Shown here: piece after piece, positions 3,902-49,651 of the stretch
Layout: every line of letters starts with the position of its first letter
How positions within the stretch are numbered: position 1 is the first letter of the stretch
Source: a virus
DNA: 64,000 nucleotides
Direction: 5' to 3' (one strand)
IMG/VR virus record: IMGVR_UViG_3300031576_000018
Coordinates: 26,840 to 90,839 of that record
Notes under the pieces: generated by a model
What the model was told of the DNA's origin: nothing
Seen by the model: the letters and a program-made list of their open reading frames with translations, nothing else
The model's database searches: none
Translations under genes and position numbers: made by a program

Positions 3902-5022
3902 CCTTTAACCCGTCAGATGTAAACATAGAAGGTATTACCCCAAGTGGTAAGAGTTTTATTGATGTCTTTACAGAAGGGCTTCGAGAACTTGCAAGGTCTA
4001 GGCAAGATGAGCTTTATCCAGGGGTTATTAAGTCAATCAATTCTGACGGTACGGTTAATGTCTCTGTAAAAGGAACGACAGTTCCAAGATTACCCGTTAA
4101 CGGTCTAGCCAAATTAGGTGGGGATGTTTTAGTAACTGCTCAGAATATGCTTGTTCTCTCTAACCTCCCCAACAAAGTTATTAAGGCATCAAAACTTCCA
4201 GTAACAAAACCTAGACATGTTTTCGCATCGCAAAGGGATATTCCTTTTGAAAGAACGCACAGTGTGTCGATAACTCAAGGGGAGTACTTCTTTGATTTCT
4301 TTCCTACCGCCGCAGGAGATGGGGTTCTTACGGCGTATATGACAATAAACGGTAAGTTGTTAGCCGCTTTAATCAACTATGACTTTCCTGACGCTGTATT
4401 TGATCCTTATCCACACAGAGCGTTGGAAAATTTCTTGAACTACAACCATGACCTACCCCTCCCTCTCATGGCTAACCCACCTGACGCTGTGGATATCCCT
4501 TTAGGGACTAAAACAGTATTCGGTTTCCCCACAGGTGAAGTTGGTACACACACTTTGATTATAGGTGATCCTTTACTAGTTTCTTCTGGTGTATTGGATG
4601 CTTTTGTTATTGGTAGTCAGCTCCCGTCTAACGTCAACCCAATAGGTTCAGGTGAAGGAGCAGGTGTTAGCCCAAATGGGTTAAGTCTTGTAACAGGAAC
4701 ACCATCGTTTGTTCCGGCTCCTTACTTACCATCGCCTGAATCAGGAAGCCTGTTTCATCGAATTGACATTACCCCGTACGTCTCCGTAGGACAGGAAAAT
4801 TGTGGTGTTTTTCAAATAACAACAATTCACAATACGTCCCATTTCGATATTACATTTGATTTTAGAATTGTAAGAAAAGTTAATGGTACAGAGGTTACTA
4901 TTTTGAGTGATAATGATACAATGTTCTACAATAGTGGAACGCCTAGCGAAACTAAAATAGCTTACTTTAGAGAGTTTTGTTTCACAGGTACGACTGTTAA
5001 TAAAGACCCTTCAGATTGGTAG
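3898..5022 (+). CDS. Putative baseplate spike/tail-tip protein with OB-like N-terminal domain
   Basis: GVIKSINSDGTVNVSV..LGGDVLV pattern typical of gp5/gpV-like N-termini; follows hub-like gene. Confidence 0.45.
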   Translation: MTFNPSDVNIEGITPSGKSFIDVFTEGLRELARSRQDELYPGVIKSINSDGTVNVSVKGTTVPRLPVNGLAKLGGDVLVTAQNMLVLSNLPNKVIKASKLPVTKPRHVFASQRDIPFERTHSVSITQGEYFFDFFPTAAGDGVLTAYMTINGKLLAALINYDFPDAVFDPYPHRALENFLNYNHDLPLPLMANPPDAVDIPLGTKTVFGFPTGEVGTHTLIIGDPLLVSSGVLDAFVIGSQLPSNVNPIGSGEGAGVSPNGLSLVTGTPSFVPAPYLPSPESGSLFHRIDITPYVSVGQENCGVFQITTIHNTSHFDITFDFRIVRKVNGTEVTILSDNDTMFYNSGTPSETKIAYFREFCFTGTTVNKDPSDW

Positions 5023-5032
5023 GTAAGAAAGC

Positions 5033-5791
5033 ATGACGGTACCCCAGAATGTTATAGCGTACGCTAAGAAAGAGTTAGGATACGGTGAGTACCCATCGGG
5101 ATCTAATAACTGTAAATTTAACACATGGTACGGAGGAAATGGGTATCCTTGGTGTGCAACGTTTGTTAGCTATTGCTTCTTTATGGCGGGTCTTCCACTA
5201 CCTGCGTCAACACCTAAAGGATTTTCTTACTGCCCTGCTGGTGTTGATTGGTTTAGGAAAAAAAACGCCTATCACACAACACCCGTAGTAGGGGATGTCG
5301 TTTTCTTTGATTGGTATAAGGGAACAGGAAAAAGTGGAGCCTATCATGTAGGTATTGTCTCTGCTGTAAACAACGATGGCACTATCTTAGCCATTGAGGG
5401 TAATACGTCTAACGTTAGTCAAGATAACGGCGGTCAAGTGATGGAGAAAAAGCGATCTCCTGTGAACTATCACGGATTTGGAAGACCAGTATATTCAGGG
5501 AGTACCCCTGTTCTTACGCAGCCCGTTATTTTAGCACCTGTTGAGGGATACCCAGAGTGGGACGGTACTTATTATTACCTAACCTCTCCTAATATGAATA
5601 GAGACAAACTAAAACAGTGGAAACTAAGGATGAAACAGAGAGGTTGGAACATAGATACAGAACCCCTGTCAGTATATGGTGAGTTCTGTGCGAAAGTAGT
5701 TAAAGACTTCCAACTAGAAAAGGGTCTAGAGGCGGATGGTGTTCTAGGACCGCTCACCTGGAAGATGGCTTGGGAAGCACCAATAACATAA
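5033..5791 (+). CDS. Endolysin: CHAP amidase plus C-terminal PG_binding_1 domain
   Basis: PWCATFVS (Cys), HVGIV (His), IEGNT; C-terminal VKDFQ..GLEADGVLGPLTW. Confidence 0.92.
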   Translation: MTVPQNVIAYAKKELGYGEYPSGSNNCKFNTWYGGNGYPWCATFVSYCFFMAGLPLPASTPKGFSYCPAGVDWFRKKNAYHTTPVVGDVVFFDWYKGTGKSGAYHVGIVSAVNNDGTILAIEGNTSNVSQDNGGQVMEKKRSPVNYHGFGRPVYSGSTPVLTQPVILAPVEGYPEWDGTYYYLTSPNMNRDKLKQWKLRMKQRGWNIDTEPLSVYGEFCAKVVKDFQLEKGLEADGVLGPLTWKMAWEAPIT

Positions 5792-5889
5792 TAATGTTCT
5801 ACCATTAAACTATAGCTGTGCTTCGGCTTGATGTCAGGAAACTGACATCTTTTTTGTTTAGTAGTATACTTAAAAAAGAGGTAACTAAA

Positions 5890-6285
5890 ATGGCTCAGCA
5901 ACCTAAAGATTCGAGAAACACCTCCAGTGTTCAAAACATATTAAATGACTCTAGACCAAGTAAGTTGTTGGGTTGGACACAAAATTGTCTACCGAACACG
6001 CAGACGACTATCAATATACCGGTTAATGGGGGGAGCTTCTTCTTTAGCATATTCTTTAAAGACGCGGCAACAACTAATACGGCGGCTCCAGTGTGGATTT
6101 CAGATACTTCAGGCAACGTGCTACCTTCTGCAAACGGCACAGCAACGATAGCTCAGAATGAAAAATCAATTTGGTTTGAAGGTGGAAGATTAACGTTTAC
6201 CGTGGAGAAAGAAATTAAGGCACTTTACGTTTGTCCAGTTGATCCCGCTCAAACGGTAACTGCTCATTTTATAATTGGAGATTAA
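5890..6285 (+). CDS. Hypothetical virion protein
   Basis: ATG 5890 preceded by GAGGT; beta-rich ORF in structural module. Confidence 0.55.
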   Translation: MAQQPKDSRNTSSVQNILNDSRPSKLLGWTQNCLPNTQTTINIPVNGGSFFFSIFFKDAATTNTAAPVWISDTSGNVLPSANGTATIAQNEKSIWFEGGRLTFTVEKEIKALYVCPVDPAQTVTAHFIIGD

Positions 6286-22216: not shown

Positions 22217-22247
22217 AAATAGTGTGGGAAATTTCCCACACTATTTT
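22217..22247 (+). terminator. 30-bp perfect palindrome, terminator/attenuator-like
   Basis: AAATAGTGTGGGAAA|TTTCCCACACTATTT just downstream of P1. Confidence 0.6.
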
Positions 22248-22264
22248 AGTTAGAGGAGAAAGTT

Positions 22265-22998: not shown

Positions 22999-23020
22999 GT
23001 TGAAGAAATAACCTAAGTGG

Positions 23021-23080
23021 TTAACTCAGCTAATCTATTCATTTATTTTGTTTACAATTATAGGTTTATATGGTATAATA
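23021..23080 (+). promoter_or_regulatory. Repeated sigma70-type promoter P2
   Basis: TTAACTCAGCTAATCTA..TTTATTTTG-TTTACA(23051-56)-17-TATAAT(23074-79). Confidence 0.9.
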
Positions 23081-23138
23081 TAGACTATCTTTAGGATATT
23101 TTCCTTTAGATTTTTAGGCAATTTTTATTTTACGTTAG

Positions 23139-23174
23139 TTAGGTGTAGGGAGTTTTCCCACACCTAATTTTTTT
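23139..23174 (+). terminator. Intrinsic terminator within P2 leader
   Basis: TTAGGTGT-aGGGA gttt TCCC-ACACCTAA followed by T7. Confidence 0.7.
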
Positions 23175-23197
23175 ACTTTAATGGGAGAAAAGATAAT

Positions 23198-23428
23198 ATG
23201 AAAAATAACTTAAAAGCTATTTTTGCTCTAGGGCAAATGTTACAACACATTTCAAGCAGCGATACGCATAGGGCTGTGACAGAAAACAAACCAGCTTCAC
23301 ACACTTTTTATCCAGACGGAGTTCCTTTTATGTCCGAATTGTTACCACAAAAAAGAAAGCGTAAAAAGAAAGATAAACTAAGTAGGTCTGAGAGAAAGAA
23401 AAAAAAGACAAGTGGTCAGCTCAAATGA
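23198..23428 (+). CDS. Hypothetical protein with basic C-terminal tail
   Basis: RBS GGGAG; Lys/Arg-rich end. Confidence 0.6.
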   Translation: MKNNLKAIFALGQMLQHISSSDTHRAVTENKPASHTFYPDGVPFMSELLPQKRKRKKKDKLSRSERKKKKTSGQLK

Positions 23429-25811: not shown

Positions 25812-25855
25812 CTCACTCCATGAGCAGACTTTGCTTTCTCCCATTAAACAAGCAC

Positions 25856-28700: not shown

Positions 28701-28753
28701 TTTAGACTTTCAGGCAGTTTTAACTAAATTTATTTTAATTGGGAGAATAAAAA

Positions 28754-28996
28754 ATGATGACAACAATTCCGTTTACAGTTTCTATACTGGCAAAACCATT
28801 AAAGGAGATAATCACACAACTTAACTTTGTGAAAGCGCACAAAGCAGTTATCCCAGAGCTAGAGAATGTTGTTTTGGAGAAAGACGATAAAGGTTGTCTA
28901 CAACTTTGTGGAACAGACTTAGAAGTTTACATGACAGTTTCTACTAAAATTCGTGTAGCCGGTGACTTTAAACCAGGAGATAAAAAATATTTGTAA
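28754..28996 (+). CDS. Stand-alone fragment resembling the DNA Pol III beta-clamp N-terminus
   Basis: IPELENVVLE..LQLCGTDLEV matches DnaN LPILGNLLL..LSLTGTDLE; only 80 aa. Confidence 0.7.
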   Translation: MMTTIPFTVSILAKPLKEIITQLNFVKAHKAVIPELENVVLEKDDKGCLQLCGTDLEVYMTVSTKIRVAGDFKPGDKKYL

Positions 28997-29274
28997 TGAA
29001 AGTACAAGACTTAATTAGGATGCTCCACGAAGAATACTTACTTTTAAAGAAGCGGAAGTATAAGATTGAAAACACACCTCAAGTCTCTGTATACGAAGTT
29101 TGCGGCCAAGACGAAAAGAATATTCTGATCAGCCTAATTAACTTGTCTTCGGATGACTTAGACCGAATTTTCCATATTGACCTACCTTGTGTTGAAGATT
29201 TTGTATGGGAATTTCAAGAAAGAGATAAACTAACTATTCATCAATTACCGCACAAACAACGTAAACTAGAGTAA
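28996..29274 (+). CDS. Hypothetical protein
   Basis: TAATG-coupled. Confidence 0.6.
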   Translation: MKVQDLIRMLHEEYLLLKKRKYKIENTPQVSVYEVCGQDEKNILISLINLSSDDLDRIFHIDLPCVEDFVWEFQERDKLTIHQLPHKQRKLE

Positions 29275-29299
29275 TTAAATTTTAAAAGAGGACTTACTT

Positions 29300-29590
29300 A
29301 TGTTTACACAACTTGCGCTGATTACACTTACAACCGTTTCTTTTTACGCAGATAAATTTGAAGGAAAGCGAACAGCTTCTGGAGAAATCTTTCACCAGGA
29401 GTCTTATTATGCTGCCCATAGAACACTTCCCTTTGGAACCTGGGTACAGTTGAATCATAAAGGGAGGATTGTATTTGTTCAGGTAGTAGACCGTTGTAAT
29501 TGTAAAGGGATTGATATTTCTAAACGTGCTTTTCGAGCCTTGGGCTTACTAGAACAAGGTGTTTTGAAAGATGTTCAATTAACTTATTAA
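29300..29590 (+). CDS. rlpA: RlpA-like double-psi beta-barrel lytic transglycosylase
   Basis: SFY..GKRTASGE..AAHRTLPFGT.V..V.DR..IDISKRAF. Confidence 0.9.
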   Translation: MFTQLALITLTTVSFYADKFEGKRTASGEIFHQESYYAAHRTLPFGTWVQLNHKGRIVFVQVVDRCNCKGIDISKRAFRALGLLEQGVLKDVQLTY

Positions 29591-29603
29591 AAGGAAAAAG
29601 ATT

Positions 29604-29957
29604 ATGCAAATAGATTTAAAAGAAAATAGCGTCATTATTGACGGAATTGAGTATGAAAAGAAACAGCCGCCTCTATCTGATTTTTGTATTATACGCACCT
29701 ATTCAGCGGGTGTGTTCGCAGGGTATGTAAAAGAAAAACGAGGACACGAACTAGATTTAACAGACGTAATTCGACTTCACTACTGGGGAGGGGCTTGCAG
29801 CCTAAGTCAGTTGTCTCAAGAAGGAGTAAAGGAGCCGAACGTGTGCAGATTCTCGGTGGTTGTTCCTTTTCAAACAGTTAACGGCTGGATTGAAATTATA
29901 CCTTGCACCGCTGCCGCAGAAAAAAATATTAAGGGAGTAAAGACGTGGAAAAGTTGA
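29604..29957 (+). CDS. Conserved phage protein (DUF6948-like)
   Basis: IIRTYSAGVFAG..LHYWGGACSLSQL..G..EIIPC. Confidence 0.7.
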   Translation: MQIDLKENSVIIDGIEYEKKQPPLSDFCIIRTYSAGVFAGYVKEKRGHELDLTDVIRLHYWGGACSLSQLSQEGVKEPNVCRFSVVVPFQTVNGWIEIIPCTAAAEKNIKGVKTWKS

Positions 29958-30199
29958 CGAATCCTTTTTTCAATCATACTTACACAGGCGATGGCTGTGG
30001 CAGTGGCAGTGGCGATGGCAGTGGCGATGGCAGTGGCTATTATGGCAGTGGCGATGGCTGTGGCTGTGGCAGTGGCTGTGGCAGTGGCTGTGGCAGTGGC
30101 GATGGCAGTGGCGATGGCAGTGGCTATGGCAGTGGCTATGGCGATGGCTATGGCAGTGGCGATGGCGATGGCTATGGCAGTGGCTGTGGCTATGGTTAA
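29945..30199 (+). CDS. Glycine-repeat microprotein (G-[SDCY])n
   Basis: GTG with GGGAG RBS; overlaps upstream stop. Confidence 0.65.
   Translation: MEKLTNPFFNHTYTGDGCGSGSGDGSGDGSGYYGSGDGCGCGSGCGSGCGSGDGSGDGSGYGSGYGDGYGSGDGDGYGSGCGYG
29987..30196 (+). repeat. Hexamer tandem repeat GGC(AGT/GAT/TGT/TAT), ~35 units
   Basis: Seen directly in the sequence. Confidence 0.95.
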
Positions 30200-30268
30200 A
30201 AAAAGGAATTTGTCACCCCCCCCCCTGTTAGCCAAGGAACAAAGCATATTTAGGTAAAGGAGAAATTA

Positions 30269-30601
30269 ATGGGAGTTGTACAAGCAAGTAAAGTAGATGT
30301 GACTAAAGAATTAATAGGGAAGATGGAGAAGCACGTTAAACGTGTTTTGGAAAACTTCGCCTCTGACTTCTATGACCACGATGTGAAAGAAATAGAGGAG
30401 TATGCTAAGGAGGCCGAACCGCCTAAACTTTTGTGGAGTATTAGGGAATCTGGAACCTGGTTAATTCCGCTTATACCAGAGCAGGAAGAGAGGATAGAAC
30501 AGATTAAAGAGCAATATAAAGACCACAGGGTAATTGAGTATTTCATAGTCGATGTGAAAAAAGGAACACTTAAAAAGATTTATTTTTACAATTCACAATA
30601 G
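30269..30601 (+). CDS. Hypothetical protein
   Basis: RBS AAGGAG. Confidence 0.7.
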   Translation: MGVVQASKVDVTKELIGKMEKHVKRVLENFASDFYDHDVKEIEEYAKEAEPPKLLWSIRESGTWLIPLIPEQEERIEQIKEQYKDHRVIEYFIVDVKKGTLKKIYFYNSQ

Positions 30602-30612
30602 GGAGGTTTACC

Positions 30613-31137
30613 ATGATCGTCAATTTAAGAGACTTTTTAAGCACCTATGTACAAGAGGCAGTAGGGGAGTGGCTAGAAGTACAGGATATCCCGCAAAGTA
30701 AGCATGAACTCTTTTATAGCGTGCTTAGAAAGAAAATTCAGGAAAGGGTTGAAGGATTTCTTCACCGTAACGCGATTATAGCTACGGCAATTGAAATAGC
30801 CAGACATGACGAGTTTAAACCAGATAAATTAAAGCTAGTGTGGCAAAATTCTCAAATAGGCGAAATAGTCTTAGCGGGAAAGGTTATTGGGCAAGCAAGA
30901 ACATTCCCAATAAACGGTATGAGCACAAACATTTATATCTTGGATAAAATTTCAGACGCTTTAATTGTGGAGGTGGATAGTTTTTACTCAGGAAACGAAC
31001 CAGAGAAACCTGAGTTTGTTATTGTCCATCCCAACAAGGGTCAGTCTAAATACAGTTACAGTCTTATCTTCACTCAGTGGGAAGATGTACAAAAGGTCGT
31101 AGATGGATTTTTTAACGTAAAAGAGTGGGGTAAGTAG
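30613..31137 (+). CDS. Hypothetical protein
   Basis: RBS GGAGG. Confidence 0.7.
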   Translation: MIVNLRDFLSTYVQEAVGEWLEVQDIPQSKHELFYSVLRKKIQERVEGFLHRNAIIATAIEIARHDEFKPDKLKLVWQNSQIGEIVLAGKVIGQARTFPINGMSTNIYILDKISDALIVEVDSFYSGNEPEKPEFVIVHPNKGQSKYSYSLIFTQWEDVQKVVDGFFNVKEWGK

Positions 31138-31139
31138 AT

Positions 31140-31508
31140 ATGTCTAAAACCTACCCACTTCTTAAGCCTTTAAACAATGAAGTTGTTATTTTAGTTCCTC
31201 CTTTACTTGCCAAAGAAATTGGTGTGTTAGAAGCTATCTTTTTACAACAAGTTCATGAGTGGTTAGAAGCAATAGAGAAAGTTGACCCAGAGACAGAAGA
31301 AAACCCAGTTAATTATATTCGCAGACCTAAAAAAGTGTGGCTGAGCGAACTACCTTTTATAACTTTTTCAGAGTATGACCGAGTAATTGCAAGTCTACAC
31401 CCTAAAGGATTATTGACTTTTAAGAATGATTATGACCATTTAACTATGCGGATTGATTATGAGAAATTGGCTACCTACAAAGGTCATTTGGTGAGCACAG
31501 AGCGTTAG
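31140..31508 (+). CDS. Winged-helix protein paralogous to the initiator N-terminus
   Basis: LAKEIGVLEAIFLQQVHEW vs LAKYLGLLDAIFLQQVHFW; ELPF shared. Confidence 0.75.
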   Translation: MSKTYPLLKPLNNEVVILVPPLLAKEIGVLEAIFLQQVHEWLEAIEKVDPETEENPVNYIRRPKKVWLSELPFITFSEYDRVIASLHPKGLLTFKNDYDHLTMRIDYEKLATYKGHLVSTER

Positions 31509-31587
31509 ATAAAAAAATAGCCCCACTGTTTTTCAATATGTTACAATGGGGAAATAAATCTTTTTTGAATTGGAGATATTGTACCTC

Positions 31588-32436
31588 ATGTCTAAGACTT
31601 TAATCAATGAAGCCCCCTTATTAATTCCCCGCACTTTAGCTAAATACCTTGGTTTATTGGATGCTATTTTCCTACAACAAGTTCATTTCTGGGTAGAAAT
31701 TAACAAACAAGCAGGAAGAAATCTAAAAAAAGGTGATTATTGGATGTATCTCTCCTCAGAAGGCTGGATAGAAGAACTTCCCTTCTTGTGTGAAAAAACA
31801 ATAAAAAATATTATTGTTAGACTAAAGAAATTAAATTTGTTAATTGTTGACCATTTAGATAAGAATCATTTTAATCGCACAAATTGGTTTCGTGTTAACT
31901 ATGAAGAGCTAGAAAGATTAGAAGTTTCTTGGTTAGAAGAGAAAGAAGAGAAAGCCAGATTAAAATTTTTTGCACTCGCTGTTAAAGAAGTGGAAGAAGA
32001 ATTAGAAGAGTCAATGGGTTCTAAAATACCAGATAGATTGGGTAAATTTACCCAATGCATTAGTGAACCAAATACCCAATCAGAAAGGGTAACTGACGCA
32101 CAATCTAAACAGAGAGTAACAGAGATAACAAAAACAACTTCTTCCGAAGAAAAAGATTACCCAATGGATATAGAGGAAGAGGACAAAGAACTACGAGAAG
32201 ATTTTGAGTTAGTGTGGGGAGATTTTCCTAAGAAAGATTCTCATAAGGAAAAGCACTGGTTAAGATATAAACAGCTCAAACCAAAAATAAAACTAGTTAA
32301 ATTAGCTTTAGACCTTTTAGAAGAACAAACAAACGGACAAGTAAAATTCTATCCCAACTTTGATAACTTTCTTACTTCTTTTGTAGCTAAGAAAACCAGT
32401 TCTGATGACTACGACCCTAAAACAGGGATTCTTTAG
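31588..32436 (+). CDS. Phage replication initiator (N-terminal wHTH)
   Basis: LLIPRTLAKYLGL..AIFLQQVHFW..NRTNWFRVNYE; upstream of a DnaC-like ATPase; internal iteron-like repeats. Confidence 0.8.
   Translation: MSKTLINEAPLLIPRTLAKYLGLLDAIFLQQVHFWVEINKQAGRNLKKGDYWMYLSSEGWIEELPFLCEKTIKNIIVRLKKLNLLIVDHLDKNHFNRTNWFRVNYEELERLEVSWLEEKEEKARLKFFALAVKEVEEELEESMGSKIPDRLGKFTQCISEPNTQSERVTDAQSKQRVTEITKTTSSEEKDYPMDIEEEDKELREDFELVWGDFPKKDSHKEKHWLRYKQLKPKIKLVKLALDLLEEQTNGQVKFYPNFDNFLTSFVAKKTSSDDYDPKTGIL
32013..32104. repeat. Iteron-like degenerate palindromes (candidate origin)
   Basis: Perfect 20-bp palindrome ATTGGGTAAATTTACCCAAT 32037-32056 flanked by degenerate copies at ~22-24 bp spacing. Confidence 0.6.
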
Positions 32437-32438
32437 TT

Positions 32439-32684
32439 ATGCCAAATATATTACCGTTTCCTACAGGGGATAGTCTTGAGGGTGTAAGCACTAAAGCACC
32501 TACTGGTGTTAACGTAGACGTGGTTTGTGCGAATTGTAGAGGTGTATTCGTTACAAGTGTTAGCGAAGAAGAGCTGCTCAGAGGCGCATTAAAGGTTCAT
32601 TTGCCTTTTCCTGCTGCGTGTCCTAATTGTGGTGTTATGCGTAAAAAATTTAGACTGCTTGAGGATGATTGGATAGATGAGTGA
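32439..32684 (+). CDS. Zinc-ribbon protein
   Basis: CANC...CPNC. Confidence 0.65.
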   Translation: MPNILPFPTGDSLEGVSTKAPTGVNVDVVCANCRGVFVTSVSEEELLRGALKVHLPFPAACPNCGVMRKKFRLLEDDWIDE

Positions 32685-33213
32685 TGAGATATTAGGTCGA
32701 TATGGAATAGGAAAATCCTATAGAGGTTTACAGCTTCAACACAGTAAATCTGCTTTTGTTGCTTCAGAAGTTTCAAGTTACTTAGAAAGACTTAAAACCC
32801 ATGTTCAAGAAGGAACGGGTTTACTTTTCCAAGGTGCTGGGAATACAGGTAAATCAGCTTTGGCTTCTATAATTTGCCGAGAGGCAATTCTAAAGCATTA
32901 CTATCCTGCTTATTTTATGTCTTTAGATGATCTTCTTCTTTTAGACAACGCTCGTTGGAAGATGAAACAGTACCAAGAAGAGTATTCCAAGAAGGTAGAG
33001 AAGCCTAAGATTTTAGTTTTAGATGACGTACCTTTTGTTTCTAACAAAGCGAAAAGTCCAGAAGAATTAATAAAACAGGTTCTTGCTAAGAGGCTTAGAG
33101 AGAATAATGTAACCATTTTTACAACTAAAAGCCTGAAAAATATTAAAGAGCCTATTCCAGAATTGATGTTGAGAAAGAACAAAATTATAGAGTGTACGGT
33201 GGAATATGTTTGA
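32677..33213 (+). CDS. DnaC/IstB-like AAA+ helicase loader
   Basis: Walker A GAGNTGKS, Walker B LVLDD, TIFTT. Confidence 0.85.
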   Translation: MSDEILGRYGIGKSYRGLQLQHSKSAFVASEVSSYLERLKTHVQEGTGLLFQGAGNTGKSALASIICREAILKHYYPAYFMSLDDLLLLDNARWKMKQYQEEYSKKVEKPKILVLDDVPFVSNKAKSPEELIKQVLAKRLRENNVTIFTTKSLKNIKEPIPELMLRKNKIIECTVEYV

Positions 33214-33661
33214 AGGGAACATTTCTAATCAGCCCGCGGCTACTATAGGCTGGTATTATGATGTACTTCTGATTATTAAGTATCCAAAATTATTTCGATG
33301 GGCTAAAAAAAGTATGCCTTCTATACTTAAGTTTCTTTATCAACGTAACGAATTGGCGATAGCCCAAATGGAATTGTATTTCAAAGACTACAATGTCAAA
33401 GTAGTCGTAGACCATCCAAACCTGAAAAAGATATTTGATGACGAATATAACACAGTAGCGGTAGGACACATCTCACAGCTTAGCCAGTTGCCTTATTTTA
33501 GGGTTTTTACGACAGATAAGCGTTTTATAGGTCTAAGTGGAATTGTACGTTATATTATGCCTTTTAAGCAGTTTATAAAAGAAGACAAACAACTTAAAGA
33601 TAATGTAGCTGGTTTTGCAGAAATGATGATTGAGCTTGGAGAAAGGTTGAAGAAAGAATGA
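33206..33661 (+). CDS. Hypothetical replication-module protein
   Basis: MFEGNISN start resembles, from memory, a phage family found between dnaC and dnaB genes. Confidence 0.5.
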   Translation: MFEGNISNQPAATIGWYYDVLLIIKYPKLFRWAKKSMPSILKFLYQRNELAIAQMELYFKDYNVKVVVDHPNLKKIFDDEYNTVAVGHISQLSQLPYFRVFTTDKRFIGLSGIVRYIMPFKQFIKEDKQLKDNVAGFAEMMIELGERLKKE

Positions 33662-33918
33662 GCTACACCAAAAGAGAAGTACAGAAAGACACATTAGCAA
33701 TTCTAAAAAGCATTAAAGGTTACGAGCTAGTGCAAATTGTTCCTGCCTGTTTTTCAGACCCAGAAAAGGAACAAATGTTTCAGTTTGTTCCATTTAACAA
33801 GATTGAAGACAATGTAATAACCATTTATACCCGCTTTTGTAATGATGAGGTGGTGGAGCAAATAAAAAGAATCCATAAAGAGTTTTATTCGTATTTGTAT
33901 TTGGGACAAAAAGAATGA
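33658..33918 (+). CDS. Hypothetical protein
   Basis: ATGA-coupled. Confidence 0.6.
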   Translation: MSYTKREVQKDTLAILKSIKGYELVQIVPACFSDPEKEQMFQFVPFNKIEDNVITIYTRFCNDEVVEQIKRIHKEFYSYLYLGQKE

Positions 33919-34349
33919 CAGAACATAGAAAGTATAAGCGAATTAAAGAGAACAGAGGTAGAAGTCAAATACTTCGCAGCACTACGTTAAGTATTTCTAG
34001 GTTGTATGGGAAGGGGCTAAGTGTAAAAAGCATATCAAAAAAGTTAGGTATTTCTACAACCACCATATACACGTATATAAAAAGTTTAGGCGTAAAAAAG
34101 GAAAGTTTACTATCGCCACAGCAGCTAGTTTTAAGAAAATGTGTAGCGTCTCTGCTATGTATTAAAATGCCGCCAGCGGCATTGAAAAAAATTCTTAAAT
34201 TGAAACAAACTAAAAAAGTCATTAGAGCTTGGGAGAACCAGTATGGCTATTCCGAGGATTATTTTAACAAGGGTTTAACTTTAATTAAGTATAAGGTACT
34301 ACAAAATCCTCCAAAGAAAAAGGGTAGCAAACGGGTTAAAGAGAGGTGA
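33915..34349 (+). CDS. HTH DNA-binding protein
   Basis: LYGKGLSVKSISKKLGISTTTIYTYI. Confidence 0.75.
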   Translation: MTEHRKYKRIKENRGRSQILRSTTLSISRLYGKGLSVKSISKKLGISTTTIYTYIKSLGVKKESLLSPQQLVLRKCVASLLCIKMPPAALKKILKLKQTKKVIRAWENQYGYSEDYFNKGLTLIKYKVLQNPPKKKGSKRVKER

Positions 34350-35557
34350 GTCTTGACAGAAAATTTATAACAACCCTGATTACTGAGGATGAAGCTCTTC
34401 GTAAAGCCATAGACGCTAATATTCAGGATAACTGGATATTAAAAGAACTTAGACCTGCTTATCAGTGGATTAAATCTTTCTACACAGACTTTGGTAAAAT
34501 ACCCTCAAGGGAATCTCTCATTAAACGCTTTGGTGATATCCTCACCCTATCCGAAGAGAATGTAGCTTTCTATATTTCAGAGATTAGAAACCGTCAGAAG
34601 TTTAGTGTTATGGTCATGACTGCTGAACAAGTTTCTAACCTATTAATGGATGATAAGCAACCCGATAAGACCAAAGCCTTAGAAGAAGCCGAGAAGTTAT
34701 TTAATTCTGCTCATAAGCAACTCTATACAGAACTGAATACCTCTAAGGTAGTTAACATTGCTAAAAAGGCTACAGACAGGTATGACCAGTATCTTCATAG
34801 AAAATCCAATAAAATCACAGGGGTTATAACCCCATGGGAACCATTAACCGAAGAAACAATGGGTTGGCAACCAGGAGAGTTTGCCCTTTTTGTAGGACGT
34901 AGAGGTTTAGGAAAGACCTTAACACTTCTTCTTAATCTCTCCAAAGCCTACCAAGCTGGGTATAAACCATTACTCTTTACCCACGAAATGGGTGTAAAAC
35001 CAATCAGTTTAAGACTAGATGCTATTTTAGGGCAATTTGATTACGAAGCCTTGAGAAAAGGTAAGCTAGACCTCTCTGAGGAAAGAGCCTACTTAGAATA
35101 TCTTAAACGTATGGAAGAATCAGAGATGGTTTTGGAGGTAGCCGAAGGTGCAGGAAGAAAAGGAGTAGAAACTATTTATGCGTATTGCAGGACATTAAAA
35201 CCAGATATTGTCTTTGTAGATTCTGCGTACCTCTTCGCTAAATCGTATGACTGGAAAGACCAGTATGCTTTTTCAGCAGACTTAAGAGCAATGGCTGAAT
35301 CTTTAAAGATACCTATTATTATCTCTTTACAGGAGAAAAAAGACGGTGTAGCCATAGCGAAAGCCTATGAGAATGATGCGACGTGTATGTTCAGGCAGTA
35401 TAAGGATAAAGACATGGAAGAATTACCGTTTATGTGTTTTGAGACTCGGAAAATTAGAGAAGGAGAACCCATTCGTTGGGTATCCCATTGGGATTTTAAG
35501 TCTATGAACTTTACTTGGAACCCCCAAGTAGACCCACAGGAATATATAGATATATAA
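34346..35557 (+). CDS. dnaB: DnaB-like replicative helicase
   Basis: GVITPW..TMGWQPGE, Walker A GRRGLGKT, HEM, VFVDSAY, KIREG. Confidence 0.9.
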   Translation: MSLDRKFITTLITEDEALRKAIDANIQDNWILKELRPAYQWIKSFYTDFGKIPSRESLIKRFGDILTLSEENVAFYISEIRNRQKFSVMVMTAEQVSNLLMDDKQPDKTKALEEAEKLFNSAHKQLYTELNTSKVVNIAKKATDRYDQYLHRKSNKITGVITPWEPLTEETMGWQPGEFALFVGRRGLGKTLTLLLNLSKAYQAGYKPLLFTHEMGVKPISLRLDAILGQFDYEALRKGKLDLSEERAYLEYLKRMEESEMVLEVAEGAGRKGVETIYAYCRTLKPDIVFVDSAYLFAKSYDWKDQYAFSADLRAMAESLKIPIIISLQEKKDGVAIAKAYENDATCMFRQYKDKDMEELPFMCFETRKIREGEPIRWVSHWDFKSMNFTWNPQVDPQEYIDI

Positions 35558-35558
35558 A

Positions 35559-36515
35559 ATGTTAGACACGACTGCTCTGGTAATAGCTCTTCAATCCGCA
35601 GGCATTAAGAAGATTAAAGTATGGAAAGACGAAGTTAAATTTTGCTGTCCTTTTCATGCTGATAGAACACCCAGTGCTTTCCTTAACGTTTCCAAAGTCG
35701 TCTATAAATGCTTTTCGTGTGGGAGAGGAGAATCAGCGTATAGCTTTCTTCACTTAATAGGTATTCAACCTTACTCTTTAGAAATAGAGTCCATAGTTGA
35801 CTTTGTCAGCTCAAAAGTTAATAAGGTAGTACAGAAAAGGAAATCTAAAACGTATGATCAGTTTATGGGACGTGTTGTTTCTCAAAGTATGCAAGAAGGA
35901 CTCCTTATTTGGGAACAAAGTGTACCTACTTTTACGGTAGACCCTGTAGAGGAGTATATAAAGAATCGAACAGGAAATGCGTTTACACCTATTCCGGTTG
36001 CTTATCATCCTCAACGGTACTCACTGGTTTTTAAGACAGAATTTAATATTGTTGAACGCTTCTTTAAATGTCGGTCGCAGAAGATTACTGTTCCTTCTAT
36101 GGTCTATGGAGAAAAGCATCTCTTTACACACGACTTTAAGAGCAAATCAGACACAGTTTACTTGGTAGAGGGGTTATTCGATTACTTGAACCTTTATCAA
36201 GCAGGATTTAAAAACTGTGCGGCTTTACTAGGTAGCTCTGTCTCTGATATTAACCAGGTAGAGATAGATTCTCTAGGAGAAGACGTTACTCTAATACCAG
36301 ATAGTGACAAAGCAGGATTAAACAGTCTAAAACCAAATGCAAAGAAATTAACTGAACTCGGTAAAAGAGTGTATGTGATTTACCCAAAACCAGAGAAAGA
36401 TTTTGGAGCCATGACACACGAACAAATTAGAGAAAATATTTTTAACGGGAGAACAGCGTATGGTAACAGGATATCTGGGGGCAACCTTGAAGATTGCCTT
36501 AGCCGATTCGGATAA
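35559..36515 (+). CDS. DNA primase (CHC2 zinc finger + Toprim)
   Basis: CPFHADRTPS..CFSCG; LVEGLFD; PDSDKAG. Confidence 0.9.
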   Translation: MLDTTALVIALQSAGIKKIKVWKDEVKFCCPFHADRTPSAFLNVSKVVYKCFSCGRGESAYSFLHLIGIQPYSLEIESIVDFVSSKVNKVVQKRKSKTYDQFMGRVVSQSMQEGLLIWEQSVPTFTVDPVEEYIKNRTGNAFTPIPVAYHPQRYSLVFKTEFNIVERFFKCRSQKITVPSMVYGEKHLFTHDFKSKSDTVYLVEGLFDYLNLYQAGFKNCAALLGSSVSDINQVEIDSLGEDVTLIPDSDKAGLNSLKPNAKKLTELGKRVYVIYPKPEKDFGAMTHEQIRENIFNGRTAYGNRISGGNLEDCLSRFG

Positions 36516-37818
36516 GATTAATTTAGACTTATGGAAAGTCCCCAATTCAGCCCCAGCTAAAAACAGCTTTGGAGAATTTATTCCTCTCTATTACGAAGAA
36601 GCTGGTTGGGTACACTTCCCAAGAAACAATATGCCTGAATTAGAGTGCATAATAGAGGAAAGGAATTATACATCCTCAATAGAAACTGGTTATTTCTTTC
36701 ATCAAGAGTATAGAGACTATCAAGTTGAGGTAGTAGATAAAGCACTTAAATTTATGAGGAGGAGTATTCGTTTAGGAATAGCCAGAGATGTTATTATTTG
36801 TGCACCATGCGCCAGCGGTAAAACCCACATGGCGTTCTATGCAATTGACCAATTGGCTGTAAAAACTTTAATCGCCGTCCCAACAGAGCCTCTATTTAAA
36901 CAGTGGGTAGAACGGTTAACTGACTGGACGGGTGAAGAGCCGGGTATGTTTACAGGTAGAAAAAAGAGTTTCAAAAATATTACAGTGGCGCTAGTGCCTT
37001 CTTTAATCTCTAAATTAGCGAAAAAGTATCAGCACGAATTGAATAAGTTCGCCTTGCTGATTAATGATGAAGTACATAGGCTAGGCGCTGATAAATGGTC
37101 AAAGGCGGTATGCCGTATACCGGCAGGCTATAGACTGTCTTTTTCAGCTACTCCCAAGAGAGGAGACGGACTAGACATTATTATGTTCTCTCACTGTGGA
37201 CAAGTCGTAGCAGAAGTTTCTAGGAAGCAGTTGATAGAAGAAGGGTATATAAAAAATCCTAAAGTCTTTATCTTTGAGAGAACCATTCCAACGTTGATTC
37301 AACGTTGGAATGGTTTTAACTGGGCAGCAACCTGTACGAAGATTGCGAGGCACTCTGTAGTTATCTCAGATGTTCAACATATTATCAAACAGTCCCTCAA
37401 CAAGGGTAAGAAGACGATGGTTTTAACTAACCGGCTAGAGTTAATACAGCCCCTAAAAGAGTTATTTCCAGATGCTTTTCTTCTCGTAGGTGTAAGCAAC
37501 TTAGAAGAGGCTATCGACAGAGAGAAGCTATTTAAAGCCCAGCTTATCTTAGCCATAGATAAATTAGCGACTACAGGGATAGAACTTCCTGCCTTAAGCA
37601 CAATGATTTCAGTAACACCCTATGCAGATCCTTCTGTTATTGAACAAATGTTGGGTAGGAACTCCAGACCAGATTCTATAGACCCTGTGTTTGTAGATTA
37701 TTATATTCATGAACCGAAGACGGATAAGAAGGATTTTCTAAAATTTATGTTCCAATCACGCCTAAAAGTGTATGAGTCTTTAGAGTGCGAAGTAACTTAT
37801 GTCAGGAGAGAGGAATGA
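36460..37818 (+). CDS. SF2 DExH helicase (UvsW/SSL2-like)
   Basis: RDYQ, APCASGKT, DEVH, SATP, QMLGR. Confidence 0.9.
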   Translation: MVTGYLGATLKIALADSDKINLDLWKVPNSAPAKNSFGEFIPLYYEEAGWVHFPRNNMPELECIIEERNYTSSIETGYFFHQEYRDYQVEVVDKALKFMRRSIRLGIARDVIICAPCASGKTHMAFYAIDQLAVKTLIAVPTEPLFKQWVERLTDWTGEEPGMFTGRKKSFKNITVALVPSLISKLAKKYQHELNKFALLINDEVHRLGADKWSKAVCRIPAGYRLSFSATPKRGDGLDIIMFSHCGQVVAEVSRKQLIEEGYIKNPKVFIFERTIPTLIQRWNGFNWAATCTKIARHSVVISDVQHIIKQSLNKGKKTMVLTNRLELIQPLKELFPDAFLLVGVSNLEEAIDREKLFKAQLILAIDKLATTGIELPALSTMISVTPYADPSVIEQMLGRNSRPDSIDPVFVDYYIHEPKTDKKDFLKFMFQSRLKVYESLECEVTYVRREE

Positions 37819-38141
37819 AAAAAAGAATTAAAGAAATGATTAAATTGCTGAAGTCTTTTGACAAGGCAATTTTAATGAAAGAAAGGCACAATGTTTTAGA
37901 AGAAGACGAAGCGGAAGCCAGAATAGCGGTTGAGGAATCTCCGTTCGAGAGGACAGAGATTGTTTGTACCAAGGGTAATAACTTTCAATTGTTTTTCTAC
38001 GAGTTAAACAAAATGGCAGATGGCTACGATTTGGTGAAAGATATTCCCCACATTCTGACAGAAGATAAGCTAATGGACAAGTTGGTCAGTGATTTAAAAG
38101 AAGAAAAGAAAATCTCTTTAGAGCTCTATTTTAACTCTTGA
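37815..38141 (+). CDS. Hypothetical protein
   Basis: ATGA-coupled; RBS AGGAG. Confidence 0.6.
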   Translation: MKKRIKEMIKLLKSFDKAILMKERHNVLEEDEAEARIAVEESPFERTEIVCTKGNNFQLFFYELNKMADGYDLVKDIPHILTEDKLMDKLVSDLKEEKKISLELYFNS

Positions 38142-38166
38142 CAAAGATATAAAAGGGATATACATT
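38131..38166 (+). promoter_or_regulatory. Sigma70-type promoter
   Basis: TTAACTC-TTGACA(38138-43)-17-TACATT(38161-66). Confidence 0.7.
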
Positions 38167-38173
38167 ATATATC

Positions 38174-38314
38174 ATGAGTGCAATTAGAAAATTAATTTCT
38201 TTACCAAAAGAATCCTGGGATTGGCTTTTAGAACAAGCTACCCTCCAAGGTATTTCTGTAAACGCATTAGTGGCAACCATTATCTATCAGGAAAAATGTT
38301 CAAGGAAGAAGTAG
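38174..38314 (+). CDS. Unannotated 46-aa ribbon-helix-helix (Arc/CopG-like) regulator
   Basis: MSAIRKLISLPKESWDWLLEQATLQGISVNALVATII fits the RHH pattern; ATG 8 nt after the -10 box. Confidence 0.75.
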   Translation: MSAIRKLISLPKESWDWLLEQATLQGISVNALVATIIYQEKCSRKK

Positions 38315-38640
38315 ACAAGTTCTTATTTAAAGATTTAAAGAAAAGAGAACTGGGTTTATACAGCTATGGACAAGTTGCCAAAGAATGCCAAATCAAATTC
38401 AAAACGTTAAAGTGGTTATTTAAAAAGAAAATATTTGAGAAAGGGGAGCAGTTTTCAAAGAAGACTTACCGTCTTTATCTCACCGAACGAGAAAGAGAGC
38501 TAATTACTACTACCTTTAGACTAGCAAGAAAGGAGGCTCTAGAGAACTCAGACAGAAGAGATTCAGAAGGTAACTACGTGTACAACCTATCCTATGAACG
38601 TGTAGGACAAATTTATAAACAGTTGAAGGAGAAAATATGA
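38296..38640 (+). CDS. MerR-like HTH protein
   Basis: LYSYGQVAKECQIKFKTLKWL..YRLY; ATG 38296 preferred to TTG 38221. Confidence 0.55.
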   Translation: MFKEEVDKFLFKDLKKRELGLYSYGQVAKECQIKFKTLKWLFKKKIFEKGEQFSKKTYRLYLTERERELITTTFRLARKEALENSDRRDSEGNYVYNLSYERVGQIYKQLKEKI

Positions 38641-39329
38641 GTTTTTTTACAGTTGGTTTTGAAGCAGTTGTTGAGGAAGCAAAAAGGCAAGAAGACGCCA
38701 GAGCGGCTTACTCGGATTATGACGAACTTTACCTAAACAAGGCTAAAAGCGGAAATGATGAGTGTAAAGTATTCTTTATGAGTACTGAGCCTACTAATTT
38801 TCATATCCATGATTTTGGAGAAGTGACAAAGGACAGATCAGATAAGTTTTTATGCACTGACCCCGTTAATGGGTGTGACATTTGTAAGTATATGGAAAAA
38901 CCCAATAAGTACTTTAAGTCTATGTGGCCTGTTTATGTTCCGCACCATATCTACAGAGCTGTGTCTGAAAAGGGCAAGGATAAGGAGTACAATAATGTTA
39001 TTTCCTATCTTATTTTTCCTGCTAAACACGCTGCTACTTTGGGAGCCAAAGCTACTAAATGGGGTTCATTGACTGACTTTAGAATAGACATTATGAAAGC
39101 AGGGGACGGGGGTTCTTATCAGTTTGAGAAGACCTCTGTGCCAACACCAGAGGATGTGTTAAAGATGCGTATCCCTAAACCAGAGGAGTTTATTGTTCCT
39201 CCCTCTAAAGAAAAGGTAGCTGCTTTTATTAAGAAGTATGCAGGGAAAACCCTTCATGTTGATAAGGTTTCTCTGAGTGCTCCAAAGGAGCCAACACCCG
39301 TACCAGAAAATTTTGAAATAGATTTCTAA
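38637..39329 (+). CDS. Putative single-stranded DNA-binding protein (gp32-like)
   Basis: H..C..CDIC zinc motif, acidic-aromatic C-terminus ENFEIDF, adjacent to polymerase. Confidence 0.7.
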   Translation: MSFFTVGFEAVVEEAKRQEDARAAYSDYDELYLNKAKSGNDECKVFFMSTEPTNFHIHDFGEVTKDRSDKFLCTDPVNGCDICKYMEKPNKYFKSMWPVYVPHHIYRAVSEKGKDKEYNNVISYLIFPAKHAATLGAKATKWGSLTDFRIDIMKAGDGGSYQFEKTSVPTPEDVLKMRIPKPEEFIVPPSKEKVAAFIKKYAGKTLHVDKVSLSAPKEPTPVPENFEIDF

Positions 39330-39370
39330 GTAACTTAGGGCTAGGTTTTTACCCTAGCCCTAAGTTACTT
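39328..39370. terminator. 18-bp perfect inverted repeat between ssb and pol
   Basis: AAGTAACTTAGGGCTAGG tttttac CCTAGCCCTAAGTTACTT. Confidence 0.65.
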
Positions 39371-39433
39371 GTGTACGGACGGTATAGCCCTACGTTCAAT
39401 AAAAATTTAGCTTTTCTTATTATAGGTTATTAA

Positions 39434-41299
39434 ATGATAGTTGACAATTTAGATAAGTTTGAACAATTCTGTGAGTTCCTTTCCCAAGAGCCTTTCATGG
39501 CATTTGATACAGAGACGGATAATCTACACGGTGATATCGTAGGTATGAGTTTTGCCAAGTCTTCCTCAAAAGGTTGGTACATTCCAATAGCGCACGCACC
39601 AAACTTTGTCGATGGGGATAGAAACATTCCCAAAGAAAAAGTTATCGAACTGATGAAGCCTATCTTTGAAGCCAAGCACACACAATGGTTGTGTTGGAAT
39701 TTACAGTACGAGTACTACACCTTACGGCACTGGTTGGGTATTGAAATGGCAACTGGAGAAGATGCCCAGATTATGTACTGGCTTCTTAACTCTGAAGGAA
39801 ATCTACGACTAAAACATAGAGCTGTGGTTGACTTAGGTTTATCTGGAGCCACAACCTATGAGGATATGGCAAAGGGAAAATCCCCAATGTATTCCCCAGT
39901 CGATGAGTGTGGTGAGTACGCCATTCAAGATGCTCGTTTTACTTGGGAACTCTATTGGAAGTATTTACCGCTGCTCAAAGTCAAGGGTAATTGCTACAAT
40001 GTCTACAAAGGAATACACCTACCACTTGTTGTTGTCTTAGATTCAATGTTTGAAAGAGGTATTCGTATTGATCGACAAGCTCTAAACGAGGTGAAAATCT
40101 ATTGCCAAACTAGTATGCTTAGTTTGGCTGAAGAAATGTACTCTGTGGCAAAGCGTTACTTTAATCCTAACTCCGGTTCACAGGTAAGAGATTTATTTGT
40201 TAATCAGCTTAAATTACCTGTTATTAGTTGGACTAAGGGGGGTAAGAGTGGAAATTCTCAACCATCGGTGGATCAGAATGCACTAAGTCACTATGCTAAG
40301 GAAGCGGAAGGGGAAGCGAGTTTACTTGCTAAAAAGGTGTTGGCGTACAGAGAGCTTGGAAAGATTTTGTCTACGTACACGGATTCTATTCTACAAAAAG
40401 CAGACCATTCAGATCGTATACATTCCTCATTTAACCAGACAGGAACGGTAGGCGGTCGGTTTTCTAGCCGTAACCCTAACTTTCAGAATATACCCGCCCG
40501 TTCGGAAGTAGGTAAGGCTATACGGAAGGTATTTATAGCCAGGGAAGGGTACAAACTAGTTTGTGCTGACTTCTCCCAACTAGAGCTTCGTATTTTGGCA
40601 CATTTTACTAAGGACCCTATCCTGTGTGAAGCGTTCGCTACTGGTAAAGACCCGCACTCTGCAACAGCGGCTATGCTAATGTCCATGCCGTATGAAGAGT
40701 TCTTTAGTGCGTATAAAAAACAGAAGGCAAAAGATAAAGAAATTGTTGAATTATGGTTGGCAGAGTACGGGTTTACACCTGAAGATATGCGAGGACGGTC
40801 TAAAACGGTAAATTTTGGTATTGCGTACGGCAAAAATACCGATTTAGATTTAGGGATAACCAAAGACTTCCTTGATCAATGGAAGTCTATTCATAAAGTA
40901 GTGGTTAAGTATATACAAGGCGAACACAAACAACTCCTTAATCAAGGGTTCGTCAATACTGTTCTTGGTAGGTTTAGACATTCAGAAAAAGTGTTTTCTC
41001 CTAGTTGGGAAGAAAGGGAAGCCGCTTTAAGAGAACTTTTCAATACGAAAATTCAAGGAACTGCGGCTGATCTGGCTAATATGAGTATGATTATGATTCA
41101 TGGAGAGTTTCAGACGAGAGGTCTAGACGCTTTCCTTATTGCTCAAGTACATGATGAGATTATAGCCGAGGCTAGAGAACAGCAAGCACAAGAGGTATCA
41201 GATATTATGAAACACTGTATGGAAACATGTTATCCACTAAGTATTGTTTTAGAGGTGGAACCAGGGATAGGAAACAATTGGGTAGAGGCAAAAGGATAA
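39434..41299 (+). CDS. polA: Family A DNA polymerase with 3'-5' exonuclease
   Basis: FDTET, GRFSSRNPNFQNIP, ADFSQLELRILAH, KTVNFGIAYG, QVHDE. Confidence 0.97.
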   Translation: MIVDNLDKFEQFCEFLSQEPFMAFDTETDNLHGDIVGMSFAKSSSKGWYIPIAHAPNFVDGDRNIPKEKVIELMKPIFEAKHTQWLCWNLQYEYYTLRHWLGIEMATGEDAQIMYWLLNSEGNLRLKHRAVVDLGLSGATTYEDMAKGKSPMYSPVDECGEYAIQDARFTWELYWKYLPLLKVKGNCYNVYKGIHLPLVVVLDSMFERGIRIDRQALNEVKIYCQTSMLSLAEEMYSVAKRYFNPNSGSQVRDLFVNQLKLPVISWTKGGKSGNSQPSVDQNALSHYAKEAEGEASLLAKKVLAYRELGKILSTYTDSILQKADHSDRIHSSFNQTGTVGGRFSSRNPNFQNIPARSEVGKAIRKVFIAREGYKLVCADFSQLELRILAHFTKDPILCEAFATGKDPHSATAAMLMSMPYEEFFSAYKKQKAKDKEIVELWLAEYGFTPEDMRGRSKTVNFGIAYGKNTDLDLGITKDFLDQWKSIHKVVVKYIQGEHKQLLNQGFVNTVLGRFRHSEKVFSPSWEEREAALRELFNTKIQGTAADLANMSMIMIHGEFQTRGLDAFLIAQVHDEIIAEAREQQAQEVSDIMKHCMETCYPLSIVLEVEPGIGNNWVEAKG

Positions 41300-43298: not shown

Positions 43299-43307
43299 GA
43301 GGTTTTT

Positions 43308-46949: not shown

Positions 46950-46961
46950 GAATAGTTCGTA

Positions 46962-48090: not shown

Positions 48091-48155
48091 GTAGTATATG
48101 AGGCATCCTATGCCTTGCGTAAAAAACTGCTATAAAAATATAAGGAGATAAACAA

Positions 48156-49313: not shown

Positions 49314-49341
49314 AGACTATCCGCAAGGGTAGTCTTTTTTT
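49314..49341 (+). terminator. Intrinsic terminator
   Basis: AGACTATCC GCAA GGGTAGTCT followed by a T-run. Confidence 0.85.
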
Positions 49342-49632: not shown

Positions 49633-49651
49633 TTAAAGGAGAGAGTGAAAA

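Follow-up and report, generated by a model that had tools for sequence, protein, structure and literature searches.

A duplicated promoter-leader-terminator cassette in an uncultured phage genome, a candidate source of terminated leader RNAs with antisense partners at two Shine-Dalgarno sites

The locus and the phage genome

The locus is centered on a + strand promoter that we term P2, followed by a leader of about 90 nt with two hairpins, and then by the ribosome binding site (RBS) and start codon of a gene for a protein of 76 amino acids. It lies within a window of 64,000 nucleotides, corresponding to bases 26,840-90,839 of a complete virus record of 90,839 bp, with 39% G+C and a terminal repeat of 127 bp. 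The phage is of siphovirus type and is uncultured. The genes for the terminase, portal, major head and tail tube proteins are located upstream of the window, and almost all genes are carried on the + strand. The structural block extends as far as 22109, and the non-structural half begins directly after it, at a promoter (P1) of the same family as P2. The strong use of Shine-Dalgarno (SD) sequences and the extended -10 promoters suggest a Bacillota-like host.

Comparison of the major capsid protein and the UvrD-type helicase with GenBank phages and with a collection of 5.8 billion proteins gave a best identity of 33-36%, the nearest being Bacillus phage BCD7, a Bacteroides phage and SPO1-like Bacillus phages. 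The same two proteins gave at most 35% identity by tblastn, and all matches among the 5.8 billion proteins, including those of the 258-amino acid protein discussed below, were at ≤36% identity. A blastn search of 50,697 phage records with the leader region gave zero matches, and no related loci were found in IMG/VR; the cluster mates of the record are the same phage, re-assembled. No relative exceeds 36% protein identity, and there are two full copies of the leader only.

A family of five promoters

The promoter TTTACA-17-TGGTATAAT, together with ~50 nt of common flanking sequence, is present in five copies in the 90,839-bp genome, on the + strand only, and nowhere else. The pattern can also be written TTTATTTTGTTTACAA-N12-ATGGTATAAT, and is again confined to the same five + strand sites, P1 (22155-22183), P2 (23051-23079), P3 (28671-28699), P4 (48061-48089) and P5 (56068-56096). 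Each matches the sigma-70 hexamers at 11 of 12 positions, with a 17-bp spacer and a TG extension. The P2 promoter cassette spans 23003-23079 on the + strand, with the common upstream block TTAACTCAGCTAATCTA at 23021-23037, the -35 element TTTACA at 23051-23056 and the extended -10 element TGGTATAAT at 23071-23079. The P5 cassette lies at 56020-56096 on the same strand, and its promoter block is identical to that of P2 at 55 of 62 positions.

Of the five promoters, three (P1, P2 and P5) lead into a hairpin or terminator within the leader, and the other two (P3 and P4) do not, the P4 leader having a small 5' hairpin only. The hairpin-free copy, P3, stands at the head of the replication module (28754-47723), which encodes a clamp-like fragment, an initiator, DnaC-like and DnaB-like proteins, a primase, a helicase, a PolA-type polymerase, a UvsX-like recombinase and resolvases. 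The replication genes are therefore the unattenuated class.

The -35 region of the family sits within a small dyad, TTGT-TT-ACAA. The gene for a Cro/CI-type HTH_3 protein (E 1e-8) lies at 55101-55802, two genes before P5, and this protein is a candidate for regulating the promoters. Within IMG/VR, 44 unrelated viral contigs (L006-L049), mostly of marine type, contain nearly the same promoter and upstream flank without the leader, in the form GCTCAYTT-TTTTGTTTACAA-N12-ATGGTATAAT, and in some of these (L025 and L031) the promoter occurs in tandem, 87 nt apart. It may represent a widespread type of phage early promoter, or convergence on the consensus.

Anatomy of the leaders

A sequence-only reading of this DNA had described a unit of ~90 nt with a common layout after P2 and P5, and this proved correct to the base. 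Both leaders comprise a hairpin starting at about +1, an unpaired linker, an intrinsic terminator, a U-tract and the RBS. The 5' hairpin has an outer stem of 4-5 bp, separated by a UU/UU internal loop from an inner stem that varies. At P2 (23087-23111, + strand) the outer stem is ATCT/AGAT, and the hairpin includes a -10-like TATCTT and the anti-SD-like UUUUCCUU. At P5 (56103-56135, + strand) the outer stem is TATCT/AGGTA and the terminal loop is UUUCC.

The linker consists of TAGATTTTTA, then G or AA, then GCAATTTTTA, lying on the + strand at 23107-23138 in P2 (core 23107-23127) and at 56134-56156 in P5, and in each case it is predicted to be unpaired with a probability of 0.79. The gapped linker pattern has two exact matches, where 0.00 are expected. 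The earlier reading had also noted a linker variant without a terminator at P3, and this is indeed what we find: the variant TAGACTTTCAGGCAGTTTTA occupies 28703-28722 on the + strand, at about +4 to +23 in the mRNA of the replication operon, with no hairpins. It is unique, against 0.03 expected at ≤3 mismatches. The linker thus starts at +4 in P3, +22 in P2 and +32 in P5.

The terminator hairpins of both leaders are 29 nt long, beginning with TTA and ending with TAA. In P2 (23139-23174, + strand) the hairpin at 23139-23167 has 11 pairs with one bulge and a free energy of -15.9 kcal/mol, and is followed by U7 at 23168-23174. In P5 (56157-56193, + strand) the hairpin at 56157-56185 has 12-15 pairs and -17.8 kcal/mol, and is followed by U8. 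After the U-tract of 7 or 8 U come AC, three bases and AATGGGAG, with the start codon 10-11 nt further on. This segment (AC..AATGGGAG and ATG) lies at 23175-23200 on the + strand in P2, with GGGAG at 23183-23187 and the ATG at 23198; in P5 the GGGAG is at 56202-56206 and the ATG at 56214, also on the + strand.

At the sequence level, a strong promoter and a terminator less than 200 nt apart, as in a terminated-leader small RNA (sRNA), are present at both sites, and the predicted RNAs from about +1 to the end of the U-tract would be 89 nt (P2) and 91 nt (P5) in length. Their folding gives z scores of -6.2 (P2) and -6.8 (P5), with 0/200 shuffles reaching these, and the 5' hairpins alone give -2.3 and -2.9 respectively. 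A search for tRNA and tmRNA was negative.

P1 has a leader hairpin at 22217-22254 (+ strand, ~-18.8 kcal/mol) that is a sequence relative of the P2 terminator, the likeness residing in GTGTGGGA...TCCCACAC, a point beyond the earlier note. Its stem is strong, the tail TTTTAGTT is weak, amounting merely to UUUUAGUU, and there is no linker.

We considered and rejected a leader peptide. The sole ORF is one of seven codons (ATG...TAG, 56113-56136) inside the 5' hairpin of P5, with no SD and absent from P2, and it is probably meaningless.

Terminators and operon context

The leader terminators of P2 and P5 have the canonical form, and rank with the strongest on the + strand of the genome. No terminator was found between the upstream genes and either promoter, and the leader terminator therefore also ends the upstream operon; that of P2 is the first one downstream of the three P1 genes, and that of P5 closes the gene block 49378-56023. 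Neither is there a promoter-like site in the roughly 20 nt between U-tract and RBS at P2 or P5, so that the genes downstream depend on read-through. These are three small ORFs and the helicase behind P2, and small ORFs and a PAPS-reductase-like protein behind P5.

The product of the first P2 gene (23198-23428) has a very basic tail, KRKRKKKDKLSRSERKKKK, and is possibly a nucleic-acid binder.

We sought an alternative antiterminator fold by folding the nascent RNA and by blocking one arm of the terminator, and found none in P5, and a weak, non-conserved one in P2. Because the nascent-RNA folds contain no conserved antiterminator hairpin, this is not a riboswitch-type switch. There was no Rfam match at the gathering score, and chance-level matches only at E up to 10. 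A search of IMG/VR with the linker pattern returned 26 matches, all attributable to chance. The leader element belongs to no described family, although its kind, a promoter-proximal terminated leader RNA, is already known.

Duplication and conservation of the cassette

On sequence comparison a cassette of ~180 bp is duplicated at P2 and P5, and within it only the interior of the terminator is free to differ. The two copies are identical at 17 of the first 21 transcribed nucleotides, and at 18 of 20 from the U-tract to the RBS. The linker is the best conserved segment of the leader, with 20/21 positions identical and one indel, whereas the terminators agree at 12/29 positions while remaining equal in size and place. 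There is no paralogy between the flanking genes of P2 and P5 on either side, and conservation is thus confined to the regulatory cassette. The relationships within the family are those of a mosaic: P1 and P2 have a common hairpin, P2, P5 and P3 a common linker, and P3 and P5 a common spacer.

It had been suggested that structure is conserved here despite change of sequence. The common layout, retained with such divergent terminators, agrees with this, but two copies cannot separate compensatory change from the exchange of a hairpin module. Four of the seven in-register outer pairs of the terminator are changed on both sides between P2 and P5, and the similarity of the P1 and P2 hairpins shows that modules move. 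The 5' hairpins of P2 and P5 are non-homologous pairings around a 10-nt indel; with the insertion in P5 the inner stem is formed by TGAATGA with TTATTCA, and in P2 by AGGA with TCCT. That different pairings produce a hairpin at the same end is weak evidence that a 5' hairpin is selected for.

Antisense copies of the linker at two Shine-Dalgarno sites

The present analysis revealed antisense copies of the linker at the SD sequences of two other genes. In a genome-wide search with the linker in either orientation, the other sense copy was followed by two antisense sites as the best non-self matches, with a score of 16 at 62639-62660 and, for the P5 linker, of 15 at 48121-48142, over a background of ≤13. 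The first is part of a longer site (62639-62686, + strand) that is the reverse-complement paralogue of nucleotides 4-54 of the P5 leader, with ~81% identity. The anti-linker lies 10 nt upstream of the SD AAGGAAA (62671-62677) belonging to the gene 62687-63463, in what would be the 5'UTR of that gene. The second (48121-48147, + strand) is in the 5'UTR of the gene transcribed from P4, where it is complementary to the P5 linker at 18 of 22 positions without a gap, and abuts the SD AAGGAG.

Among the 60-nt upstream regions of 93 + strand genes, the two sites rank first and second with both linkers. Of 400 shuffles that preserved composition, two reached the top score for P5 and one for P2; the second score was reached by none and by one, respectively. 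An accessible seed, unpaired at 0.79, together with target sites ranked 1 and 2 of 93, is what an StxS-type sRNA would present, as far as this can be read from the sequence. The 5' half of the P5 leader matches the antisense genome with a score of 27, compared with 17.4 +/- 1.5 for shuffles (0/150), and that score was reached in one of 150 AT-matched genomic windows. The duplex predicted between P5 and the initiation region of 62687 has a free energy of -31.1 kcal/mol, ranking first of 93 (median -15.8), and the UUUCC loop of the first P5 hairpin faces the SD of this gene. With the linkers alone the duplexes have -16.9 and -16.7 kcal/mol at the 62687 site, and -12.4 and -12.7 kcal/mol at the P4 site. 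The gap inside the core motif varies by 0-2 nt among the five copies, which fits base pairing since it would be tolerated as a bulge.

The antisense match of the P2 5' half overall is not significant (28/300 shuffles), being so for its linker only, and whole-leader duplex energies are noisy, with the top-ranked target of P2 being another gene. Of the six mismatches between P5 and 62687, only two would allow a G-U pair, a number not above chance. The antisense copies could be relics of inverted duplication.

Two further pairings were tried and rejected. Specific pairing of P2 with the P4 UTR and of P5 with the 62687 UTR fails as P5 is the better partner of both. A 14-nt 'anti-RBS' at 25835-25848 in the helicase 3'UTR, the exact reverse complement of the P2 RBS segment, agrees with chance expectation; the window contains 68 inverted pairs with 12-nt seeds, so that a single 14-mer is within chance.

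Both genes that carry these sites are ORFans, 62687-63463 encoding 258 amino acids and the P4 gene (48156-49298) 380, and neither product has a match in Pfam or PHROG. The P4 protein found only itself in an exhaustive HMMER search of 1.84 billion representatives; the 258-amino acid protein gave no homologue among 5.8 billion proteins and no usable match in the ESM Atlas. The P4 unit is monocistronic, served by a strong promoter of its own and closed by a strong terminator at 49314-49335.

The region 59700-62690, immediately before the anti-leader site, is gene-poor, with short and doubtful ORFs only. It contains minus-strand promoter-like and terminator-like sites at 61490-61461, 61553-61533 and 61322-61281 (-23 kcal/mol), and a + strand promoter at 62192-62220 followed by dense hairpins. 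From its sequence this may be a regulatory or non-coding region.

A model for leader function

Promoters, hairpins, terminators, their order, the conservation pattern and the statistics of complementarity were all obtained from sequence and folding, and on this basis we tentatively place first, while holding it to be slightly less probable than its alternatives taken as a whole, a model in which these are attenuating leaders that release 5'UTR-derived sRNAs of ~90 nt, with the linker probably acting as an antisense seed. Host RNA polymerase would start at the near-consensus extended -10 promoter, and the first 26-33 nt of the transcript would fold into the 5'-terminal hairpin, probably a stabilizer that protects the end. 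The U-rich linker of 20-30 nt would be kept unpaired. Most polymerases would then halt at the strong intrinsic terminator, releasing the short RNA, while a minority would read through into the mRNA of the downstream operon, in which the RBS begins ~10 nt past the U-tract; one terminator would also end the operon arriving from upstream. The released leader would be an sRNA of the lambda 6S/StxS kind, in which the linker, and in P5 also the UUUCC loop, would most likely pair directly upstream of the SDs of the 62687 and P4 genes, lowering their translation. Efficient but leaky termination, accumulation of the short RNA and pairing in trans are the inferred elements of this scheme.

The sRNA model is ranked first because an unpaired, best-conserved segment is the standard display of a seed, and antisense partners at SDs are at the standard position for a target. 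The sequence-only reading had proposed abundant sRNAs, for example as protein sponges, or attenuators in the form of an antitermination switch. The RNA-level anatomy, with canonical strong terminators, an unpaired linker and dependence on read-through, agrees with an sRNA and/or an attenuator; the switch form gains no such agreement, and nothing that we found speaks for a sponge.

Processive antitermination, in which the 5' hairpin and linker would be a nut-, put- or LoaP-type site or TATCTT a Q-like pause, strikes us as unlikely. A phage factor from the terminator-free P3 or P4 units would let polymerase pass the leader terminators of P1, P2 and P5, creating immediate and delayed classes of promoter. 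This would explain why identical promoters are divided into three with a leader hairpin or terminator and two without, and it fits downstream genes that can be expressed by read-through alone. The variable position of the linker also suits an RNA site. TATCTT is found at about +1 to +6 of the predicted transcript in P2 and P5 only, a position that would suit a sigma-dependent pause as at lambda PR', and it retains the key A2 and T6 of the -10 hexamer in exactly the two copies with strong terminators, and it is also explained as the outer stem of the 5' hairpin. A conserved RNA segment upstream of a terminator recalls the LoaP-dependent dfn leader (PMC12691694) and lambda nut, but a LoaP system combines a NusG paralogue with a UNCG leader hairpin, and here PF02357 is absent and the loops are UAUUU and UUUCC. 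Profile searches of the complete genome found nothing for Q (PF06530 and PF03589, E up to 1), nor for NusG/LoaP (PF02357) or sigma-70 region 2 (PF04542), with control genomes responding to the Q, NusG/LoaP and sigma profiles. Some 60 proteins compared with Pfam and PHROGs included no antiterminator, and have functions in replication, recombination and modification, with one Cro/CI-type HTH. There is no clear boxA; GAUUUUUAGGCAA is loosely similar to that of E. coli by eye, the consensus being that of E. coli and perhaps not that of the host. P3 has the linker and no terminator to overcome, and the antisense copies beside two SDs would be left unexplained, which favors an sRNA over a nut-like site. 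With no antiterminator fold, no Q, NusG/LoaP or sigma homologue and no Rfam match, the specific antitermination switch that had been proposed is unsupported. N-like proteins are to our knowledge not recognizable by sequence, and since they would escape such profile searches we retain antitermination at this low level of likelihood.

The linker could instead be a DNA operator, bound in either orientation by a phage protein that tunes or shuts off early transcription, with sites a short way past four of the five early promoters and ahead of gene 62687; this we regard as the least probable of the alternatives. All five copies (≤4 mismatches) do lie in promoter-proximal non-coding DNA, in both orientations, and there are genes for HTH proteins immediately before P5 (55101-55802) and at 33915-34349. 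The copy at 62639-62660 overlaps a weak promoter-like TTTATA-17-TAAAAT (at 62638), but this is of a quality expected by chance. The geometry is not that of a fixed operator, as the site is not palindromic and has no dyad symmetry, the gap between half-sites varies by 0-2 bp, which fits pairing and is awkward for a protein, and with respect to the start site the copies are spread from +4 to +53, an arrangement ill suited to blocking initiation. Moreover the similarity at 62639-62686 runs 25 nt past the linker into P5 hairpin sequence, pointing to a duplicated RNA segment rather than a convergent operator. A plainer architecture, which we consider improbable, is that these are ordinary terminators of operons, placed by chance beyond the next promoter, which double as constitutive, leaky attenuators of very strong promoters; the likeness of P2, P5 and P3 and the antisense copies would then be left over from cassette duplication and inversion. 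The leader terminators are the sole ones between consecutive operons, the cassette is clearly a module that has been duplicated, with a mosaic of relationships among its copies, and long-range inverted matches are common in this AT-rich genome, as the 68 pairs noted above illustrate. Against this, the contrast of 20/21 in the linker with 12/29 in the terminator argues for selection on the linker, and the antisense matches beat composition-matched shuffles and fall beside SDs. The various readings are not all mutually exclusive.

If the leader RNAs exist and pair as the sRNA model proposes, a single duplicated cassette would combine termination of the operon before it with throttling of the one after it and release of an RNA that regulates other phage genes. 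Few phage sRNAs have known targets, and this would be a lytic-type, non-lambdoid addition to them, besides providing a compact part of ~180 bp for synthetic biology. The reach of such a conclusion is limited as the phage is an uncultured singleton and the target genes are ORFans. It is conceivable, if doubtful, that the linker copies constitute an RNA-RNA control network among early transcripts with one type of promoter in common. The P2 and P5 leaders, and the P3 mRNA through its 5' end, would supply the two or three sense copies and the 5'UTRs of P4 and 62687 the two antisense ones, with sibling sRNAs formed by leader termination masking the SDs of two ORFan genes. Were this so, and were a target such as the monocistronic P4 product to alter leader read-through, terminator and antisense seed would together make a self-timing feedback loop.

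Relationship to known systems

StxS is made by termination of the PR'-tR' transcript, which is both a substrate for antitermination and a working sRNA (PMC7547250). Like lambda 6S/StxS, the present leaders have a strong promoter running into an intrinsic terminator within ~100-200 nt, downstream genes that need read-through, and a predicted short by-product RNA that would have a U-rich stretch, a hairpin from the terminator and a poly-U tail, and could base-pair in trans. They differ in being present as 2-3 paralogous copies before early-type operons, where lambda and Stx phages have one before the late operon, and in that there is no Q homologue and the candidate targets are phage 5'UTRs.

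In phage 201phi2-1, long-read transcriptomics revealed eight 5'UTR-derived sRNAs arising from premature termination, and 5'UTR-derived RNAs of <250 nt, mostly of unknown function, occur in 201phi2-1, phiKZ and PAK_P3 (PMC11512511). There too transcription stops just downstream of the start, in the 5'UTR of a phage gene. Those RNAs were found by RNA sequencing whereas ours are predicted only; on the other hand the present leaders are paralogous copies and have a conserved unpaired segment with antisense partners.

The CI RNA of phage P4 is a leader-derived antisense RNA. So is c4 of phages P1/P7 (Citron and Schuster 1990, as cited in PMC8198154). In each a small RNA from a phage operon leader pairs with ribosome-binding regions of other phage genes, as suggested here. 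Processing cuts c4 and CI out of the leader, and their action, in the immunity of temperate phages, is confined to the operon that encodes them, whereas here we propose release by termination and action on other transcription units.

Lambda nut (boxA and boxB with N) and HK022 put are likewise conserved RNA elements near the start of an early transcript and upstream of terminators. The present leaders have no convincing boxA, a different order of elements and a different hairpin, and no two-hairpin put fold. In the LoaP leaders of the dfn and mln operons of Bacillus velezensis a leader hairpin is followed by a terminator, and the arrangement is repeated before several operons (PMC12691694). 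The order of promoter, small leader hairpin, intrinsic terminator and operon, in a repeated element, is the same here. In contrast there is no NusG paralogue, the loops are not UNCG, and the terminators are strong with perfect U-tracts, while the dfn terminator is strongly NusA-dependent.

Elsewhere in the genome

The ORF of the terminase large subunit (2301-6176 in genome coordinates) is 1291 amino acids long, and the match to terminase covers residues 434-827 only, with weak extra matches in the C-terminal part. From its sequence this ORF may contain an insertion or an intein, or be a fusion.
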